This document shows, in pieces, positions 15,601-30,765 of a stretch of DNA of 36,261 nt; positions within the stretch are counted from its first letter, which is position 1; each line of letters begins with the position of its first letter. This stretch comes from Candidatus Limisoma sp. GTDB lineage: Bacteria; Bacteroidota; Bacteroidia; Bacteroidales; Muribaculaceae. The stretch lies in the NCBI GenBank assembly GCA_051872175.1, contig JBJEDP010000071.1:1-36261 (forward strand), read 5' to 3'. Below the pieces are notes generated by a model that searched no databases, was not told the origin of the DNA, and saw only the letters and a program-made list of their open reading frames with translations. Both the position numbers and the translations under genes were made by a program.

Positions 15601-17071
15601 GGTGGTAGTCACCGAATCGCTCAAGGAAGACAAAAACATCTGGAAGGAAATCGGCGACCACGCAGCGCGTTTCGCCATGTCGGTGCGCAGTGCCTCGTTT
15701 AAGTGGCGCAACACGCACACGTCGAACATTCCGCAATTCATCCCCGACGTGGGCGACTTGCTCGGACAGTCGCGCAACTACGGGCCGATGTCGCCGGGTC
15801 TCGACTTCGCCTTCGGATTTACCGACGAGAGCTATTTGCAAAAAGCTATGGACCGCGGTTGGTTGCTGTGCGACCAAAACCAGACGTCGCCGGCAATCTT
15901 CTCGCGCACCGAAGAGTATACCTTCGAACTGCAACTCGAGCCGATTCGCGGATTGAAAATCCAACTTACGGCAAACCATACCGACAACCGTACCAACCAG
16001 GTGCAATTTATGTACGACGGCATGCCGACCACGCGCACAGGTAGTTTCAACATGACCACCTGCGCTATCCGCACCGCTCTGGGTCGTAGTAGCGCTGACG
16101 ACGGCTACAACAGCGACACCTACAACAAGTTTATATCCTATCTGCCGCAGATAGCACAACGCCTCGAGCAACGCTATGCAGGCTCCGTCTATCCCTCGAC
16201 GGGATTCCTCGAAGGCTCTGCCTACGCCGGACAACCCTACACCGACGGCGTCGGTGGGGTCAACCAGTCGAGCAGCGACGTGATGATTCCGGCGTTCATT
16301 GCCGCCTACACCGGAAAAGACCCAAACAAGGTCACACTATCGCCGTTCCCATCGCTGTCGAAGATATTGCCAAACTGGCGCGTGACCTACGACGGCCTTA
16401 TCAAAATCGGCAACCTCAAGAAGATTTTCAAGAGCCTGACACTCTCGCACGCTTATCAATGTACTTACAGCGTCGGGTCGTTCAACTCCTACCTCAACTG
16501 GGTGTCGATTGGCGGCGACCTCGGCTTTACTCTCGACGAACTGACGCAGCGACCCGTGCCCTCGTCGCCCTACAACATTTCGTCGGTGTCGATTACCGAA
16601 AAATTCGCTCCGCTCGTCGGTCTTGCCGCTACACTGAACAACAACTTGACTCTCAACGCCGAATATCGCGACAGCCGCACACTTACGCTTAACTCCGACG
16701 CCGGACAACTCGTCGAAGCAAATCAGCGTGGCGTGACCGTAGGCGCAGGCTATAAGATTGCAAACTTCAACTCGGTGCTCAAAATCAAGGGTAAACAGCA
16801 AGGCGTAAGCAACGACCTAACGCTCAATTGCGACTTCTCGCTTCAAAATACGCAAGCGCTTATCCGTAAAATTCAGGAAGGTACAAGCCAGGCAACCAGC
16901 GGTACGAAGTCGATGACCATCAACTTTACCGCCAACTATGTGCTCAGCAAGCGCATAACCCTCTCGGCGTACTTCGACCACCAAATCAACAAGCCGTTGA
17001 TTTCCTCATCGTCGTATCCGACCACCAACAGCAACTACGGCTTGTCGGTCAACGTCTCCCTCGCGAGGTAA
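9617..17071 (+). CDS. sprA: T9SS outer-membrane translocon SprA (Sov)
   Basis: 2484 aa with a signal-like N-terminus. The composition is beta-rich (aromatic, Asn and Gly rich) throughout. The gene starts 7 nt after the ruvA stop, and as far as I recall the ruvA-sprA neighbourhood is typical of Bacteroidota. The size and sequence character match SprA and nothing else I know. Confidence 0.9.
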   Translation: MASFKKRYRKTGVLAVLLCLASSVMVFPQYKKSEMTPPPPLSTQTPQPADSSRLHYKVKNTVPTSYDEVLSNERNPIDLRDPSNVKSEAEYDPTTGCYVVRTRIGDREIVTPFILSADEYNSKEIRESMMEYYRKKNSELYENKGKDKFNIFDMKFSLGPLEKVFGPGGVQLKTQGSVQVQMGVKSNKTDNPALPASARRKTYFDFDQKIQATVDASVGDKLKFNMTYNTDATFDFDSKNLKLKYEGKEDEIIKSIEAGNVSMTTGSSLIKGSTALFGMKTKLQFGKLTVTALVSQQNSESQTVNTKGGAQKTAFSINADDYDKNRHFFLSHFFREHYDEFASKLPYVSSGINITRIEVWITNTRSSYNESRNIVGFMDLGENRVLQSSHWTPDASVAVPSNNSNSLLNEIKTGYPDARYISSVTSALEPLSAVGIEGGRDFEKIESARLLSSSEYKLNASLGYISLTSALNADEILCVAYEYTYQGKNYKVGEFSSDVTDTSQSLYLKLLKGATVSPQFANWRLMMKNVYSLGAYQVQKQNFKLNIKYLNDTTGTAVQYLPVEPIRSTPLLRVMNLDRLDSNNETNPDGFYDFLEGYTVVASQGKIIFPVAEPFGSYLESKIADPDDAKKYVYKELYDSTQTVAKQFQDKNKFILEGEYQASSGSQIRLNAMNVPRGSVVVTAGGVTLTENSDYTVDYNMGIVTITNQSIIDSGTNISVSLENQSLYSMQRKTLLGLDLNYAFNKDFNIGGTLMHFSEKPLTEKVSIGDELINNTIWGMNMSYNKNFMWLTNLVNKIPTVNATAPSTLSVQGEFAQLIPHKQKTGTNSGSSFIDDFETSQNTIDIRSPYSWFLASTPYDSSADALFPEAALSNNVDYGKNRALLAWYYVDRMFTQKNSSLCPAYLKNDLRQMSSPYIREVTTKEIWPNRELNYGEASAIQTLNLSFYPTERGPYNLDDTNIDADFNLLNPERRWGGIMRKLDNTNFESSNIEYIQFWLMDPFIDDVDVPNTSEGGDLYFNLGEVSEDILKDGFKAYENGNPIDGSTNKTRETVWGRVSTETSVAYAFDNTAGARRYQDVGLNGLHTDAEFEFPTYKNYVDNLRLKLSPAKIAELEDDQFSPFNDPAGDNYHYYRGYDYDEQQAGVLERYKHYNGTEGNSLGDDDSRDRLYQSSRSVPDVEDINQDNTLNEYERYYQYHISLRPKDMVVGENYITDKQEYIATLRNGQKQATTWYQFKIPLKEYEKKVGSISDFSTIRFIRMFLTGFRETTHLRFATMELVRGDWRTYDYNLNTRGETPAEGQLAMSVVNIEENSGREPVNYVLPPGVNRIVDPGQSQITQLNEQSLSLKVTNIKPGDARAVYKNTSLDLRIYKRLQMFAHAERLITDVAGDLKDGDFSVFLRLGTDIKNNYYEYEVPVKLTPAIQGGVFYNNNSQNDRYIVWPEQNFFDIHTSVFTDVKKQRNREKADPSSGVGYTTVYSDYDPYHDGNRVSVIGNPSLGDVRVVMVGVRNNSASERSGEVWVNELKVTDFDEDGGWAAKANVNLGISDIATVNFAGHIETVGFGGVDQSLANRRLDDYKQYNVATQVDVGRFLPEKVKLKAPVYYSLTKEKTSPKYNPLDQDILLEDALDNAVDKAERDSIKNYAIDQSTVKSFSVSGFNFGVKGKTPMPWDPANFTLNFSFNKQENISPTIEYEHINDYRGSFQYVFSPYFKPFKPFSSIKSKSKNLKFFKDWEFNYLPTSINFLTNMTRYYYELQSRNEADISVEVPVSVSKNFYWDRQFQLQWNVTKQLSLSFSSNTMARIEEAMGQVNKKLFPDRYKEWRDTVWNSIKGFGTPWNYDQTFTASYKAPFNKIPVLDFLTGNVSYNSTYKWDRGTEIEGSSVGNSIANNGVWNVDGKFNFENLYNKSKYLKEVNKRFSNTQRTQTKQKKPKKFQRTFQLNDSTATEVRHNLKTKKLQVKATTLDGKPFPIKTEIVDDNNLKIITKGKQNIKVVVTESLKEDKNIWKEIGDHAARFAMSVRSASFKWRNTHTSNIPQFIPDVGDLLGQSRNYGPMSPGLDFAFGFTDESYLQKAMDRGWLLCDQNQTSPAIFSRTEEYTFELQLEPIRGLKIQLTANHTDNRTNQVQFMYDGMPTTRTGSFNMTTCAIRTALGRSSADDGYNSDTYNKFISYLPQIAQRLEQRYAGSVYPSTGFLEGSAYAGQPYTDGVGGVNQSSSDVMIPAFIAAYTGKDPNKVTLSPFPSLSKILPNWRVTYDGLIKIGNLKKIFKSLTLSHAYQCTYSVGSFNSYLNWVSIGGDLGFTLDELTQRPVPSSPYNISSVSITEKFAPLVGLAATLNNNLTLNAEYRDSRTLTLNSDAGQLVEANQRGVTVGAGYKIANFNSVLKIKGKQQGVSNDLTLNCDFSLQNTQALIRKIQEGTSQATSGTKSMTINFTANYVLSKRITLSAYFDHQINKPLISSSSYPTTNSNYGLSVNVSLAR

Positions 17072-17114
17072 GAGGTAAAAGGTAAGAGGTAAGGGGTAAT
17101 AGGTAAGAGGTAAG
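17066..17114 (+). repeat. Tandem heptamer array, 7 units: AGGTAAG x5, AGGTAAA, GGGTAAT
   Basis: The units occupy 17066-72, 73-79, 80-86, 87-93, 94-100, 101-107 and 108-114. The sprA stop codon TAA (17069-17071) lies inside the first unit. Confidence 0.9.
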
Positions 17115-17124
17115 ACTACTTCCG

Positions 17125-17213
17125 TTTATCCGCCCTTTCTAATCTGCTGATATTCAACGCTGAAGCTCTAAAATGCGAATAATATAGCTGTTTATCCGCC
17201 CATTTATCCGCCC
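17125..17213 (+). repeat. Three direct copies of TTTATCCGCCC. Two of them are part of longer 21-nt copies, (G/A)TTTATCCGCCCTTTC(T/G)A(A/T)TC.
   Basis: The copies are at 17125-17135, 17191-17201 and 17203-13. The extended copies are 17124-17144 and 17202-17222. A diverged relative (CGGCATTTTCTAATC) lies immediately 3' of the fic stop at 19051-19065. Confidence 0.85.
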
Positions 17214-17220
17214 TTTCGAT

Positions 17221-17263
17221 TCCTACTATTCTTGTTCGTAGTAGTATGAATAGTCGATGCCTT
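17221..17263 (-). repeat. 43-bp duplicate of the fic gene 3' end (left copy of a direct repeat; partner at 19064-19106)
   Basis: TCCTACTATTCTTGTTCGTAGTAGTATGAATAGTCGATGCCTT compared with TCCTACTCTTCTTGTTCGTAGTAGTATGAATAGTCGATACCTT gives 41/43 identity. The reverse complement of the left copy reads GIDYSYYYEQE**. The right copy is the true C-terminus, GIDYSYYYEQEE*. Confidence 0.9.
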
Positions 17264-17353
17264 TTTGTTTTGATTTTTTTATTGACAAATAAGCTGATTT
17301 TTTTGTCTGCTGTTAATTAAGTTTAAATATCGGCGTGTTTAGTCGTTTTGTGG

Positions 17354-17383
17354 TTGACAAATTGGGTAAAATATGTAAATTTG
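17354..17383 (+). promoter_or_regulatory. Candidate promoter of the HTH-ImmA/PIN module
   Basis: TAAATTTG (17376-17383) matches the Bacteroides -7 consensus TAnnTTTG. GTTG/TTGACA at 17353-17359 lies 19 nt upstream. The ATG at 17411 is about 28 nt downstream. Confidence 0.5.
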
Positions 17384-17410
17384 TAAACCGAAACAATTTA
17401 TGATAACACT

Positions 17411-18463
17411 ATGAATGCTCTATTTTCTTCACGACTAAAGCAAGCTCGGATAATGCAAGGGTTATCTATGGATGCTCTTTGCGAGAAAGCGGATAATGCA
17501 CTGAGTAAGCAGTCTATTTCAAAATACGAAACCGGAAAGATGATGCCCGATAGCAAGTCGCTGATAATCCTCGCAAACGCATTGGGTTTGAGTGTCGATT
17601 ATTTTTTTCGACCTCTTGGTGTCGTTGTTGAGAGAGTTGAGTTTCGCAAGAAATCTAAATTGGGCAAAAAGCAGGAACTCGCCATTAAAGAGGTTGTAAA
17701 AGACAATTTGGAACGTTATTTTGAAATAGAATCATTTAATGACATCAAGTCGGAATTTAAGCCGATATGTCGAAATGTTTTGATACAAAGCGAAGATGAC
17801 GTGTTCTCGTTTGTCACTCGCATAAAGAATGATTGGAAATTGGGCGAGGATGGTATCAATAATCTTATTGAGATTCTTGAAGAAAACCAAATCAAAGTTA
17901 TAGAAATAGATGCTCCGAATAGCTTTGACGGTTTAAGCGGTTATGTGAATGGCAAAAATCCGTTTATTGTGCTTAATCGGAATTGTAATAGCGAACGTAA
18001 GCGTTTTACGGCTTTGCACGAATTGGGCCATTTGATACTGACGTTCGATAGTTCAATCGACCAACGAGGAGTTGAGCAGTTGTGTCATCTTTTTGCAAGC
18101 GAAATGTTAATTTCAAAAGATGTGTTCATACAAAGAATCGGGCTGAATCGTAAAGACATTTCGTTGCAAGAGCTGCAAGACATTCAGATTCAATTCGGAA
18201 TCTCGATTGATGCTTTGATGCATAAGGCTTGGGCACTAAACATAATAACAGAAAGTCGCTATAAAACTTTTCATATAAAGAAGAATCGGAATCAACAATT
18301 CAAAGAAGAAGTTGACCGCAGTCGATATAAAACCGAGCAAACAAATCGATTTGTCAGATTGGTGTATAGGGCTTTGGCAAGTGAAATTATATCAATATCC
18401 AAAGCCGGTGTGTTGTTGAATGTGCCTGTGGGTGTTGTGCGTAACCAATTGAGTTTAGTGTAA
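17411..18463 (+). CDS. Fused XRE-family HTH / ImmA-IrrE (M78, COG2856-type) zinc metallopeptidase protein
   Basis: The N-terminal HTH reads RLKQARIMQGLSMDALCEKADNALSKQSISKYETGKMMPDSKSLIILANALGLSVDYF. The HEXXH zinc motif HELGH is at aa 203-207 (nt 18017-18031) in the context RFTALHELGHLIL, with a downstream E (FASEML). Confidence 0.85.
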   Translation: MNALFSSRLKQARIMQGLSMDALCEKADNALSKQSISKYETGKMMPDSKSLIILANALGLSVDYFFRPLGVVVERVEFRKKSKLGKKQELAIKEVVKDNLERYFEIESFNDIKSEFKPICRNVLIQSEDDVFSFVTRIKNDWKLGEDGINNLIEILEENQIKVIEIDAPNSFDGLSGYVNGKNPFIVLNRNCNSERKRFTALHELGHLILTFDSSIDQRGVEQLCHLFASEMLISKDVFIQRIGLNRKDISLQELQDIQIQFGISIDALMHKAWALNIITESRYKTFHIKKNRNQQFKEEVDRSRYKTEQTNRFVRLVYRALASEIISISKAGVLLNVPVGVVRNQLSLV

Positions 18464-18464
18464 A

Positions 18465-18968
18465 ATGGAAATTGTAGTCAACGATACAAATATTTTCATT
18501 GACCTCTATTCCGTTGGGATGTTAGAGCAATTCTTTGATTTGTCGATAAAAGTGCACACCGTTGACTTTATTGTAAATGAAATTACCGATAACGACCAAA
18601 TCAAAGCCATTCGCAAATATATTGATAATGGAAAACTTTATGTTCAATCGTTTGATGCAAAAGAATTGCTTGAAGTCGTGGAACTACACAATAATGCGGG
18701 AGGTAATGTCTCAATCCCGGATTGTGCAGTGTGGTATTATGCGAAGAAACATAATTATACGTTACTGACGGGCGATGGGCAACTCCGAAAGAAAGCCATT
18801 GAGTCGAGTGTTGATGTAAAAGGGATTATTTTTGTTTTCGACCGTTTAGTGGAAGAAAGAATCATTTCGTCTACCTATGCCGCGACTAAATTGCGAGAAT
18901 TGTTAAAACAAAATTTGCGTTTGCCAATATCTATAATAAGGGAACGCATCGAAAAGTGGAGTAGTTGA
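18465..18968 (+). CDS. PIN-like nuclease domain protein (putative toxin/effector)
   Basis: The ATG is 1 nt after the upstream stop (gtgTAAaATG). The first strand is PIN-like with an acidic residue (IVVNDTNIFIDL). The later acidic/Thr block LLTGDGQLRKKA is followed by a helical tail. The protein is 167 aa. Confidence 0.7.
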   Translation: MEIVVNDTNIFIDLYSVGMLEQFFDLSIKVHTVDFIVNEITDNDQIKAIRKYIDNGKLYVQSFDAKELLEVVELHNNAGGNVSIPDCAVWYYAKKHNYTLLTGDGQLRKKAIESSVDVKGIIFVFDRLVEERIISSTYAATKLRELLKQNLRLPISIIRERIEKWSS

Positions 18969-19065
18969 TTGTTCTGATTTTAACAATTTAACAAATCCGT
19001 TGCACGCACTGCGATGATCTTTCTGTGCGACGAAAATATTTTTAACTAAACGGCATTTTCTAATC

Positions 19066-19947
19066 CTACTCTTCTTGTTCGTAGTAGTATGAATAGTCGA
19101 TACCTTTGAGGAATATTTCTCTGCTATCGGTTTTTGTGGTTATGGCACTGTGAAGGAGTTGCTTGATGTGTGTAGAATCGGCTACACTTTGTGTCATTGC
19201 TTCCAGGTAGTCGTGCTTTCCAATCTTACTCCAGTCGATGCAGCAATGATGACGCGCTTTGAGCATCAGGTCGAGCCATATGCGTGTGCTGCGTCCGTTG
19301 CCTTCCATGAATGGGTGCGCCACGTTCATTTCTACGTATTTTTCAAACACCTCATCAAGCGTGTTTTCCGGCATACGCTCAATCCGCTCTAACTGCTGAG
19401 GCAGGTATTGAGCAAGGCAGAAAGTGAAACCACCTTTGGAGATTGTTTTGGTGCGTATCTGCCCGGCAAAATCATACAGTCCGCCGAAAATATACGCGTG
19501 TATCTGCTGCAGAGCCTTTGCCGTTCCTTCGCTAAAAGTGTCGACCATATTGCTCTCGTATAGCGCATAAGCCTTCTTCTTGCTCTGCCCGTCGATGGTG
19601 TTGTCGCTGTAGGTGAGCCAATCGAGAAATGCCGTTGCTTTTTGATTGGGGATAGCTTTTGCAAGTGCCGCGATGCCGTCGGCGTCGAGTGTGTCGGTAA
19701 GATATTTCTTTCCGTCGGCTGCGCGTAATTTCAGTTGGTTAGTGGCGCTAACCAACTCGTTGCCTTCTTTCTTGAGTTTTGTCTTCAGATACTTCCAGTA
19801 GTTGCGTGTTTTGGCATAGTCGTCCTGCTCGTTGATGGCACCAATGACGTCAAGGACAGAGAAATACCAACGGGCATTTTCTTCCGCCCAGACGGCGCGG
19901 ACCTCGCGGTCGTTGTAGAATCGGATGGATATCTTCGGCTCTTTCAT
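19066..19947 (-). CDS. Fic/DOC-family protein (AMPylase-type) with an N-terminal Bro-N-like DNA-binding domain
   Basis: The Fic motif HPFMEGNGRSTR is encoded at 19282-19317 (verified by back-translation), and GGLYDFAGQIRT lies upstream of it. The N-terminal ~110 aa (ISIRFYNDREVRAVW..WYFSVLDVIGAI...ADGIAALAKAIPNQKATAFLDWL) fit the Bro-N pattern. The start is reassigned to ATG 19947 (MKEPKISIRF), because the track start at 20058 is a TTG extension. Confidence 0.85.
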   Translation of the reverse strand: MKEPKISIRFYNDREVRAVWAEENARWYFSVLDVIGAINEQDDYAKTRNYWKYLKTKLKKEGNELVSATNQLKLRAADGKKYLTDTLDADGIAALAKAIPNQKATAFLDWLTYSDNTIDGQSKKKAYALYESNMVDTFSEGTAKALQQIHAYIFGGLYDFAGQIRTKTISKGGFTFCLAQYLPQQLERIERMPENTLDEVFEKYVEMNVAHPFMEGNGRSTRIWLDLMLKARHHCCIDWSKIGKHDYLEAMTQSVADSTHIKQLLHSAITTKTDSREIFLKGIDYSYYYEQEE

Positions 19948-20105
19948 CGGTCTATAATGCGGTTTCGTTTGTGACTTGCAATTACTGCGAAGATACGAAA
20001 TTTTTTGGGTATAATAAAAATATTTGCGAACTTTGCAAAACGATGCTTTGGGCGGCAATGGTTGCCGCGCGGGCGTTTTCTAATTACAGGCTCAATCAAC
20101 GAACT

Positions 20106-21701
20106 ATGGGTAAACCGAAACATAAGAAAAAACAACGAACGCCGAACGCTTACGACCGCTTTTGCGAGCGGTTGTCGGCTTTTTATGCCGCTCATCGTCG
20201 TGCGGTTGATATGGTTGTGGTCGGCGTGATTTTTGTGGCATTTTTTTGCATAAGGGCTGTGAATATCGACTTGCGCAAGCAACTGCACAGCGACGAAATT
20301 TTCTCGGTGTCGATTTCGACGTGCAACGCTTACTACAACTCGCCGCTCCCCGATGGCGACTATTCGGGCGAGCAACTCAAGCATCTGCTCGTTGCCGACG
20401 ACCATGGCGGCATCGAAGGTGCTGCCGCCGACATCGCTCAACTGTGGGTAAACAACGGTGATGCGCCGCATGCGAGCCTGTATTATATGTTTTTGCGCCC
20501 GTTCTTGATTGGCTTCGACACGTTCGACGTTCATTCGCTGGCGTGGCGCGGCGGTGCGTTGAATTTGCTGTTTTTCAGCCTGTCGTTTTTCTTGATGCTC
20601 AGGCTGTTGCGACGCATTTATCCGAAGCGTTCGCTGCTCGTCTTTGTGGGATTGGTAATGGCTTTCGGCAACTGGATGTCGATACGCAACACGTTGCTCA
20701 TTCGTGAATATCAGATGGCGGAAACGGCGATAATTGCAGTAATGCTCATTGGTGTCGACCTCATCATCCGTCTGCGTGAAGGCGAAGCCGTTGCGGTGCG
20801 TCGGCTTGTCGTTGCGCTTGCGTTTGCCATTGCCGCAGCTATTTCGTTGGGCTACTTCAACGCAATCTTTATCGTCGGTTTCGGCGTTGTTGTGATGTGT
20901 GCATGCGCCAAATATCGCCGTCGCGACCTCGTCAAGTGGCTGCTGGTTTCAGCCGTCGGGTCGGTGGTCGTTGCGTTGATACTTTATCCCGGATTTTTCA
21001 ACTTTTTGCTACACGACAGCGTGCACAAGCAGCGCGCCTTCTCGAGCGTACGCAACATTGTCGGCAACGTGATGGTGCGCGATTTGTTGCTGAAGTTTTT
21101 CACCGTTCCGGGTGCGCTCATCGTGGCAGGTGCTTTTGTGGCAGCGCTGATAGGCAATCGCCGCCGCGAGCTCTTCAAATCGGGCAATTTTGCGTGGGTT
21201 TCGGTTCTGGCGGTGGTGTGTATGTTCGTCATACAGTATGCGTCGTTGCTGAAGATGCCGCGCTACTATTTCCCGCTGACGCCGGCGTTGGCGTTGTTGG
21301 TGCCGCACGTCATAGGGTGCGTCGGCAAACAGGCGACCGGATTCTTTGAATTGCTCATTATTTTATATTTCCCGGCATTGACGATGCTCTATTCGGCGCG
21401 AAGCAACTACAACTGGCAGTCGCTGCGCAACGGACTCGCACAGTCGACGACATTCAGCCAACTCAACCCGAACGAGGTTGTGCAATTGCTGCCGGGCATT
21501 ACCGACACGGCAACCTATACGATTGCCGGCAACGGAGCATTTGTGCTCAAGCGAAACGAGGAAACCTTTGTTGTGTCGAAGCGCGCAATCGGTATCAGCA
21601 ACGATTCAATCGTGACGTATAAGCGATTGCTGTGGGGCAGGCATATCTTCCTCTACAAGTTTAATTATGTTCCAAAAGTTGAGTCAAATGAGAATCTTTA
21701 G
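20106..21701 (+). CDS. Polytopic membrane protein, GT-C-fold (ArnT/PMT-like) glycosyltransferase-like
   Basis: More than 10 hydrophobic spans. The first extracytoplasmic loop carries SDEIF (a DE-type motif) and DAPHASLYYMFL, which resembles the HPPLYY block of GT39/GT83 enzymes. The start is uncertain: ATG at 20043, 20058 or 20106, and the track start 19971 is GTG. Confidence 0.5.
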   Translation: MGKPKHKKKQRTPNAYDRFCERLSAFYAAHRRAVDMVVVGVIFVAFFCIRAVNIDLRKQLHSDEIFSVSISTCNAYYNSPLPDGDYSGEQLKHLLVADDHGGIEGAAADIAQLWVNNGDAPHASLYYMFLRPFLIGFDTFDVHSLAWRGGALNLLFFSLSFFLMLRLLRRIYPKRSLLVFVGLVMAFGNWMSIRNTLLIREYQMAETAIIAVMLIGVDLIIRLREGEAVAVRRLVVALAFAIAAAISLGYFNAIFIVGFGVVVMCACAKYRRRDLVKWLLVSAVGSVVVALILYPGFFNFLLHDSVHKQRAFSSVRNIVGNVMVRDLLLKFFTVPGALIVAGAFVAALIGNRRRELFKSGNFAWVSVLAVVCMFVIQYASLLKMPRYYFPLTPALALLVPHVIGCVGKQATGFFELLIILYFPALTMLYSARSNYNWQSLRNGLAQSTTFSQLNPNEVVQLLPGITDTATYTIAGNGAFVLKRNEETFVVSKRAIGISNDSIVTYKRLLWGRHIFLYKFNYVPKVESNENL

Positions 21702-30334: not shown

Positions 30335-30673
30335 ATGACGATGGCAAAGATGAAATTTACACCGGCTGACGAGATGAAAGACGAACTTTGGGGACCGATA
30401 GGTACACCGGCGCGTGACGCGATGGAATCGCAACTCAAAGAGGACATACAATCCTACTTTGTCGGAGAAGCAATAAAGAAAGCACGCCTCAAGCAGAACT
30501 TGACGCAAGAAGAGTTAGGCGAAAGAGTTGGCGTAAAACGCTCGCAAATATGCAAGTTGGAGAGCGGTAAAAGTTCAATAACCTTATCCACTATGAGTAA
30601 AGTGTTCAAGGCATTGGGCATTGCTACGGCTACGCTTGATTTGGGTATAGGCGGGAAAGTTGCTTTGTGGTAA
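30335..30673 (+). CDS. XRE-family HTH antitoxin, HigA-like
   Basis: The ATG directly abuts the toxin stop (TAAATG). The HTH reads IKKARLKQNLTQEELGERVGVKRSQICKLESGKSSITLSTMSKVFKALG. Confidence 0.8.
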   Translation: MTMAKMKFTPADEMKDELWGPIGTPARDAMESQLKEDIQSYFVGEAIKKARLKQNLTQEELGERVGVKRSQICKLESGKSSITLSTMSKVFKALGIATATLDLGIGGKVALW

Positions 30674-30755
30674 GAGGTAAGAGCTAAGAGGTAAGAGGTA
30701 AGAGTGGAGAGATTATATTTCGGAGTTTTTTACTCTTACCTCTCCTCTCTTACCT
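30668..30755. repeat. Heptamer array on the + strand (30668-30709) and an inverted 3-unit array (30733-30755) that together form a long imperfect hairpin between convergent genes
   Basis: Plus-strand units are TGGTAAG, AGGTAAG, AGCTAAG, AGGTAAG, AGGTAAG and AGTGGAG, and the HigA-like stop TAA (30671-30673) lies in the first unit. Minus-strand units are AGGTAAG, AGAGGAG and AGGTAAG, starting 10 nt after the nuclease stop. Positions 30694-30704 pair perfectly with 30733-30743 (11 bp), further pairs follow after an internal loop, and the apical loop is 28 nt. Confidence 0.85.
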
Positions 30756-30765
30756 TTCCACTATT

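Follow-up and report, generated by a model that had tools for sequence, protein, structure and literature searches.

Introduction

Direct repeats (attL and attR) mark integrative elements that reside in the 3′ ends of genes, and the cis-mobilizable elements known as CIMEs carry no recombinase. Two other kinds of process bear on such structures: tandem duplication with random loss, in which a duplication followed by differential loss reorders genes and leaves pseudogene stumps behind, and homology-facilitated illegitimate recombination or Campbell-type integration, both of which act at short homology. Here, we analyze a 36,261-nucleotide stretch (hereafter, the window) from Candidatus Limisoma sp. 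(Muribaculaceae; contig JBJEDP010000071.1), in which a direct repeat of the 3′ end of a fic gene brackets a module of two genes, one encoding a helix-turn-helix (HTH) protein with an ImmA/IrrE-type zinc peptidase domain (the ImmA gene) and the other a PIN-like protein. The repeat, the module, and fic lie between sprA, a type IX secretion translocon gene, and a gene that we call orf552. An earlier note, made from the sequence alone, had read the repeat as the attachment-site (att) signature of a small cassette inserted into the end of fic. Our comparison with related genomes indicates that the repeat probably consists of two fic 3′ ends, one belonging to the intact gene and the other being what is left, between sprA and the module, of an earlier copy (the stump).

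The direct repeat and its surroundings

A repeat search of the window showed that the two copies (Table 1) agree at 47 of 51 positions, with a longest perfect run of 29 nt. The 43-nt core on which the earlier note was built (17221-17263 and 19064-19106) has two mismatches, so its figure of 41/43 was exact although the repeat extends further. When a 39-mer was sought with at most three mismatches, only two sites were found in the 36-kb window and none in 100 shuffles. The right copy is indeed the true end of the minus-strand fic gene, which closes with KGIDYSYYYEQEE before its stop codon. The left copy translates as KGIDYSYYYEQE followed by two stops and, just as had been described, loses its similarity to fic at once beyond the repeat, with a sharp edge at 17264; homology of the module to related genomes starts nine bases past this edge, at 17274.

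The GC content between the copies is 0.33-0.40, against 0.50-0.56 in the flanks, and the picture of a low-GC HTH-ImmA/PIN module free of integrase and transposase was borne out. Pfam scans and gene calls recovered no recombinase domain in the islet genes, in the ten larger open reading frames (ORFs) outside the sprA-to-helicase stretch, or in the genes called on an identical contig, although an unlinked enzyme is possible. The neighbors of the islet in the window are fructan-utilization genes, ruvA, sprA, a sigma factor gene, a helicase gene, and similar genes.

All sequences used here are metagenome-derived and several arrangements occur in related populations, which would suit a mis-joining of reads from coexisting strains with different arrangements. 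We consider such an assembly artifact very unlikely: a 20.4-kb Logan contig (SRR30616783) is 100% identical over the whole islet, and over the module/fic junction the same holds for a 901-bp contig of a second run (SRR30616785). The left junction is covered by the 20.4-kb contig alone.

Gene orders in related genomes

Scanning one genome per species with the Fic protein yielded 80 loci, and four further loci (L107, L108, L115, and L125) were obtained by looking up near-identical ImmA and orf552 proteins. Just one of the 80, from a Candidatus Limisoma metagenome-assembled genome with ~92-95% nucleotide identity to the window (L001), shares the neighborhood. Its gene order is sprA, fic, module, orf552, whereas that of the window is sprA, stump, module, fic, orf552; fic and the module have thus swapped positions with their orientations unchanged. 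The fic gene of L001 is intact, so a complete gene stands between sprA and the module at the position and in the orientation of the left repeat copy. A general association between this fic family and the module was rejected, the module being present in L001 alone among the 80 loci.

In three assemblies from different samples (L107, L115, and L125), the order is again sprA, fic, module, orf552, but fic lacks the sequence corresponding to window positions 19108-19727. This 620-bp internal deletion breaks the reading frame and removes the catalytic motif, and what remains is a 73-codon N-terminal ORF with a TAA at the junction. The L108 contig ends inside fic, showing the fic 5′ end, the module, and orf552, and probably carries the same deleted allele. 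In all close relatives, therefore, fic occupies the left-copy position between sprA and the module, either intact or deleted. The inner edge of the window stump, after GCCTTT, and the point where the deleted allele departs from intact fic are one and the same nucleotide, and the next six nucleotides are TTGTTT in the stump and TTATTT in the deleted allele. The earlier note had itself named a decayed fic remnant as a finding that would speak against an att junction at the left copy, and an intermediate of such decay, with a shared breakpoint, exists in these three assemblies.

Other relatives have neither gene. In L116, L117-120, and L084-104, sprA lies next to orf552 with no fic and no module between them; the spacer is 45 nt in L116, whose sprA and orf552 are 90% and 86% identical to those of the window at the nucleotide level, and 2-13 bp separate the two genes on contigs of more distant relatives. 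A metagenome scan with orf552 added ~20 distant empty sites and one close but truncated contig. Because the empty sites of distant relatives lack both fic and the module, the whole 2.9-kb stretch between sprA and orf552 is an accessory islet, and at least four states of it were found: empty, fic with module, deleted fic with module, and stump with module and fic. The fic 3′ end is consequently not the resident, conserved target gene that the att reading called for, as it is missing together with the module. The empty site with a single repeat copy which that reading foresaw was recovered in part: L001 does show sprA, flank, and fic with a single copy, although its module lies across fic.

Look-ups with the exact Fic, ImmA, PIN, and sigma factor proteins returned contigs of one study only, all of them window-like and with no excised or alternative state, and a search for Fic homologs (nearest, ~87% identity) added no relatives. 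These results bear on a programmed, reversible switch of cassette order, in which a distant recombinase would act on the fic end and on a 14-nt junction repeat (r, described below) in a phase-variable manner. The existence of two orders with conserved orientations and short junction repeats is what such a system would produce. We give it almost no credence: diverged lineages each have one fixed order instead of a mixture, the repeat copies differ at 4 of 51 positions, the junctions contain unmatched filler and deletions, and in the indexed assemblies identical proteins were not found in a second arrangement.

The right neighbor of the islet, orf552, matched no Pfam or NCBIfam family. In relatives it follows sprA on the same strand at a distance of 2-13 bp, an arrangement that suggests a functional link between the two genes.

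A 14-nt repeat and possible movement of the module

The module of the relatives is flanked by a different repeat. Two perfect copies of a 14-nt sequence, r (ACGAAATTTTTTGG), enclose it in L107, L108, and L115; both copies are also present in L125, and L001 has an imperfect version. No common core therefore accompanies the module at its independent positions, and in the relatives it stands on the other side of fic, contrary to the claim that it had been inserted at the fic end. Module homologs in four further loci (L109-L112) had neither a fic gene nor a flanking repeat.

The two copies of r also allow a history in which the module is the part that moved. Recombination of one r copy with the other would have released it from its place between fic and orf552, and it would then have re-entered at the fic 3′ end, producing the 51-bp repeat; re-entry could have occurred by Campbell-type homologous recombination, if the circle carried a short piece of the fic end, or by the action of an unlinked recombinase. 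This is essentially the non-autonomous, CIME-like cassette of the earlier note, and we regard it as possible but doubtful. Direct repeats do flank the module at either position, with a length of 14 nt in L107, L108, and L115 and of 51 nt in the window, the fic/orf552 junction of the window has the form of a precise excision product of r with r, the sprA/fic junction of L001 has a single repeat copy, an r-like sequence lies at the right end of the module in the window as it would on an excised circle, and the module coding sequence is far closer between lineages than the backbone is. Against these points, the module of the relatives carries no fic end beyond the 7-nt GTCGATG of L001, which leaves the 51-bp duplication unexplained, and its left end differs by ~17 nt between the two positions. 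The repeat lengths also disagree (14 versus 51 nt, with analogous fic-end repeats of 177 and 900 bp described below), no recombinase was found among the genes scanned in the 36 kb, module homologs occur elsewhere without flanking repeats, and the coincidence with the deletion breakpoint of fic is left without a cause.

A further possibility is that r just upstream of orf552, and perhaps the fic end too, acts as an acceptor that has no recombinase or is served in trans, with defense cassettes (fic and the ImmA/PIN pair) added one after another beside orf552, pushed toward sprA, and eroded. We consider this improbable. An integron-like cassette array would have an IntI integrase and structured attC-type sites at the cassette ends; no integrase was found, no hairpin sites were seen among the inverted repeats, and of the two repeats at the junctions one is a 14-nt A/T-rich string and the other a coding segment. 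If the acceptor reading were true, the site would be a miniature integron-like place of accretion in uncultured Bacteroidales, with insertions flanked by short duplications and a module able to hop between positions.

Proposed history of the islet

Duplication or re-acquisition of fic followed by deletion, at a hotspot between sprA and orf552, is in our view the most likely origin of the repeat. The anatomy of the islet, the alternative gene orders, the empty sites, and the shared breakpoint are direct observations; the order and mechanism of the events, as we infer them, would be as follows: (i) the ancestral order would have been sprA, fic, module, orf552; (ii) the resident fic would have been inactivated by the 620-bp internal deletion still extant in L107, L115, and L125; (iii) an intact fic would have arrived between the module and orf552, at r, either by a tandem duplication of the islet with subsequent loss of the second module through recombination between r copies or by homology-anchored insertion of a fic-bearing fragment; and (iv) a second deletion of ~290 bp would have removed the remainder of the old fic, leaving 51 nt. 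Neither a dedicated recombinase nor an att site would be required. The sharp edge of the left copy, peculiar to this genome, would reflect nothing more than a more advanced erosion. When one extra deletion was modeled in the L107 allele, the stump/module junction of the window was predicted at 82/90 identity, and the score was 73 from this allele versus 67 from intact fic.

Several observations weigh against this history. Insertion of the module at the 3′ end of fic, with 51 bp duplicated, would give a final structure of identical topology, and the exact unoccupied site for either genome type is present in the other type; the history therefore cannot be read from the structure alone. The agreement over the six nucleotides past the breakpoint lends modest support, given that the region is T-rich and the score gap is six points. 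The flank next to the stop codon of the stump is closer to L001 than to the deleted allele, and this flank has a further 78-bp rearrangement that the proposed events leave unexplained. The repeat copies differ at 4 of 51 positions, a larger divergence than that between the module and its closest relatives, although the counts are too small to interpret. Finally, among the genomes recovered there was none with two full fic copies around the module and none with fic alone.

Similarity to the relatives is mosaic. Identity to the genomes with the deleted fic is 98-100% over the module coding region (17474-18874, compared with L107, L108, and L115) and over the final 140 bp of sprA, whereas the backbone is 90-93% identical; this difference indicates a recent horizontal exchange between lineages, in which either the module or the portion of the islet nearest sprA was transferred. 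Loss of the module by recombination between the two repeat copies is possible, given their perfect run of 29 nt, with no such product seen. What stands of the att-like reading is thus a real repeat around a low-GC, mobile module without a recombinase; fic as a regenerated target and a constant core do not.

Table 1. Coordinates of the features discussed, in the window unless a locus is named
Feature	Position	Strand	Description
Accessory islet (stump, module, fic)	17072..20042		sprA stop to orf552 start; missing from empty sites
sprA/stump flank	17122..17213	+	TTATCCGCCC present three times; flank downstream of fic repeated at 17122-17144
Left repeat copy	17214..17264	-	51-nt fic 3′-end stump, with 9 nt past the stop
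Module upstream/promoter region	17265..17410	+	Homology to relatives' modules from 17274; TTGACA-16 nt-TAAATT at 17354-17381
HTH (XRE) and ImmA/IrrE zinc peptidase gene, RmrA-like	17411..18463	+	Pfam HTH_3 6.5e-14, Peptidase_M78 2.7e-13
PIN-like gene (DUF3368/DUF5615), presumed toxin	18465..18968	+	Starts 1 nt after the ImmA gene stop
Module/intact-fic junction	19030..19056	+	Degenerate r ACGAAAATATTTTT (19030-19043), then 13-nt filler (19044-19056), then fic downstream flank
Right repeat copy	19057..19107	-	True 3′ end of intact fic, with 9 nt past the stop
fic, Bro-N-like N terminus and class III Fic AMP-transferase	19066..19947	-	Motif HPFMEGNGRSTR; PADLOC PDC-S04
Repeat r	19995..20008	+	ACGAAATTTTTTGG, 14 nt; single copy at the fic/orf552 junction
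orf552	20043-21701	+	Conserved right neighbor of the islet
Deleted fic allele (620-bp internal deletion)	L107 955-1290; L115 119-460; L125 729-1066		Three assemblies, different samples
fic duplication loci	L029 6682-13153; L021 4856-6998; L064 7968-10087		Prevotella and other Bacteroidales

Junction segments and the sprA flank

The 13-nt filler, a 45-nt segment of the sprA flank (17145-17189), and the stump/module spacer found matches among the fetched loci only in copies of the window itself, the 45-nt segment having none in any other fetched locus. Compared with the empty-site spacer of L116 and with the flanks, these segments gave nothing beyond 8-9 nt. The part of the flank that repeats the sequence downstream of fic includes GATTAG, which corresponds to the last codon and stop of fic in L107. 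This part is no proof of a third fic insertion, since a local duplication of 78 bp would account for it just as well.

The same flank is rich in short repeats. Three exact copies of TTATCCGCCC lie within 90 bp (window 17124-17216), compared with one exact and one variant copy in the L001 flank and one copy in L107. A heptamer array, (GAGGTAA)x7.3, starts at the sprA stop (17065-17115), and its copy number varies: there are three GGTAATA units in L001, one in L107, and none in L116. A second array, (GGTAAGA)x5.1, is found at 30669-30704, with an inverted partner at 30733-30759 downstream of another gene.

Duplicated fic ends in other Bacteroidales

A second fic end was present in 4 of the 80 loci of this fic family. 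Direct repeats of 177 bp of the fic end surround a DinD-like gene in L021 and L064, two identical 900-bp copies surround YhcG-like and DinD-like genes beside hsdS in L029, and L020 has an inverted 161-bp copy. Together with the repeats around the module, these cases give lengths of 14, 51, 177, and 900 bp, and a fixed att core was rejected on this ground. At these loci, which come from Prevotella and other Bacteroidales, the fic family occurs among DinD-like and YhcG (DUF1016)-like genes next to restriction-modification genes such as hsdS. Here fic is duplicated in full or in part and the YhcG copies are mosaic, a pattern that looks like a shuffling of cassettes by recombination between paralogs.

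The Fic protein and its C-terminal helix

The islet is made up of two independent defense-type cassettes, a class III Fic protein and a RosmerTA-like ImmA/PIN pair. The Fic protein matches the Pfam Fic family at 2.9e-13 and the NCBIfam model of the NmFic type at 7e-74, and the catalytic motif of class III Fic, HxFx(D/E)GNGRxxR, is present in its translation as HPFMEGNGRSTR. In PADLOC it corresponds to the candidate defense gene PDC-S04 (3e-159). Like other class III proteins such as NmFic, it has a recognizable core (1e-57 to NmFic in the PDB). Unlike NmFic, it has an additional Bro-N-like N-terminal domain of ~115 residues, whose Pfam match (1e-4) is below the cutoff of that family.

The inhibitory helix of class III Fic proteins has the motif [S/T]xxxE[G/N]. 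The window Fic has SYYYEQ where NmFic has SYYYEG, keeping the serine and the glutamate and ending in Q rather than in G or N. Its C terminus, KGIDYSYYYEQ, aligns with KGIEQSYYYEG of NmFic and places E290 opposite the inhibitory E186 of the NmFic C-terminal helix (PMC3667792). Because of this alignment, the repeat is predicted to encode the autoinhibitory helix found at the C terminus of class III Fic proteins. In NmFic, truncation of this helix led to strong activity, and mutants in which the glutamate was replaced by glycine were detrimental (PMC3667792). By analogy, a Fic protein without the helix would be constitutively active and harmful, and only rearrangements that leave the working gene with a complete end would survive.

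The stump lies within a 20-codon ORF with a TTG start on the minus strand (window 17226-17288), MSIKKSKQKGIDYSYYYEQE, most of which is the Fic autoinhibitory helix motif; at the place of one of its codons, CAA, L107 has TAA. It is conceivable that the hypothetical product of this ORF serves as a free inhibitory peptide in the manner of a class I antitoxin.

The ImmA/PIN module

RmrA is the zinc peptidase antitoxin of RosmerTA, a toxin-antitoxin system with a role in defense (10.1101/2022.05.11.491447, Millman et al. 2022 preprint; Ernits et al. 2023, PMC10440598). The islet resembles this system in its HTH and ImmA/IrrE zinc peptidase gene, which matches the RmrA models of PADLOC strongly (best, 6.5e-41), and in the small putative toxin gene that adjoins it. 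We therefore describe the ImmA gene as a putative RmrA-like antitoxin or regulator of a RosmerTA-type module. The partner gene is where the two differ, as it is PIN-like (DUF3368/DUF5615) and matches only the PADLOC candidate family PDC-S70, weakly (8e-6). In Pfam it barely passes the cutoff for DUF5615 (3.3e-5) and is below the cutoffs for PIN (1.7e-4) and DUF3368 (3.1e-4); no RmrT model of PADLOC matched it, and no PDB entry matched its protein by sequence. It accompanies the ImmA gene in every other locus examined.

The ImmA family is common in Bacteroidales (3188 homologs at E<=1e-20), and module homologs were found in unrelated contexts, on plasmids, and in phages; a scan of viral contigs with ImmA gave no matches. 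A promoter and terminator scan of the islet returned nothing above shuffled expectation. In L125 (1219-2271), the ImmA gene is broken into ORFs of 217 and 127 residues, so the module too is decaying in some lineages.

Comparison with known systems

The islet resembles elements bounded by attL/attR, and CIMEs in particular, in that a repeat brackets a low-GC accessory module, the gene-side copy completes the reading frame, and no recombinase is found inside. It differs from them in four respects: the target gene is itself accessory, the relatives carry the module elsewhere with another repeat, the repeat length varies across analogous cases, and the distal copy coincides with the decaying fic of the relatives. 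A repeat that seems to regenerate a gene end around a low-GC module is thus insufficient to call an integrative element, and in the light of the comparative data the present one is better read as a scar that deletion has left between two copies of one accessory gene.

More broadly, a defense hotspot of a Candidatus Limisoma-like lineage is documented here, with sprA on one side and a conserved gene for a membrane protein on the other, and toxin-type defense genes appear to be lost, regained, and reordered there over short evolutionary distances without a dedicated recombinase. The analogy with NmFic also predicts a constraint, namely that rearrangements at class III fic genes should preserve the C-terminal inhibitory helix.

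Tandem duplication with random loss offers a close likeness: the order A-B has become B-A with orientations kept, a 3′ stump stands beside its original downstream flank, short repeats (r) could mediate loss of the redundant copy, and L029 shows the intact two-copy state in the same family. The islet departs from this scheme in that no two-copy intermediate was found for it and its mosaic similarity suggests that DNA was exchanged between lineages as well. Homology-facilitated illegitimate recombination fits the junction at the 14-nt r and the other junction with its unmatched filler in a T-run, and needs no recombinase, although in the islet it is not demonstrable from sequence alone. Taken together, the feature is a new instance of known processes acting in a defense hotspot.

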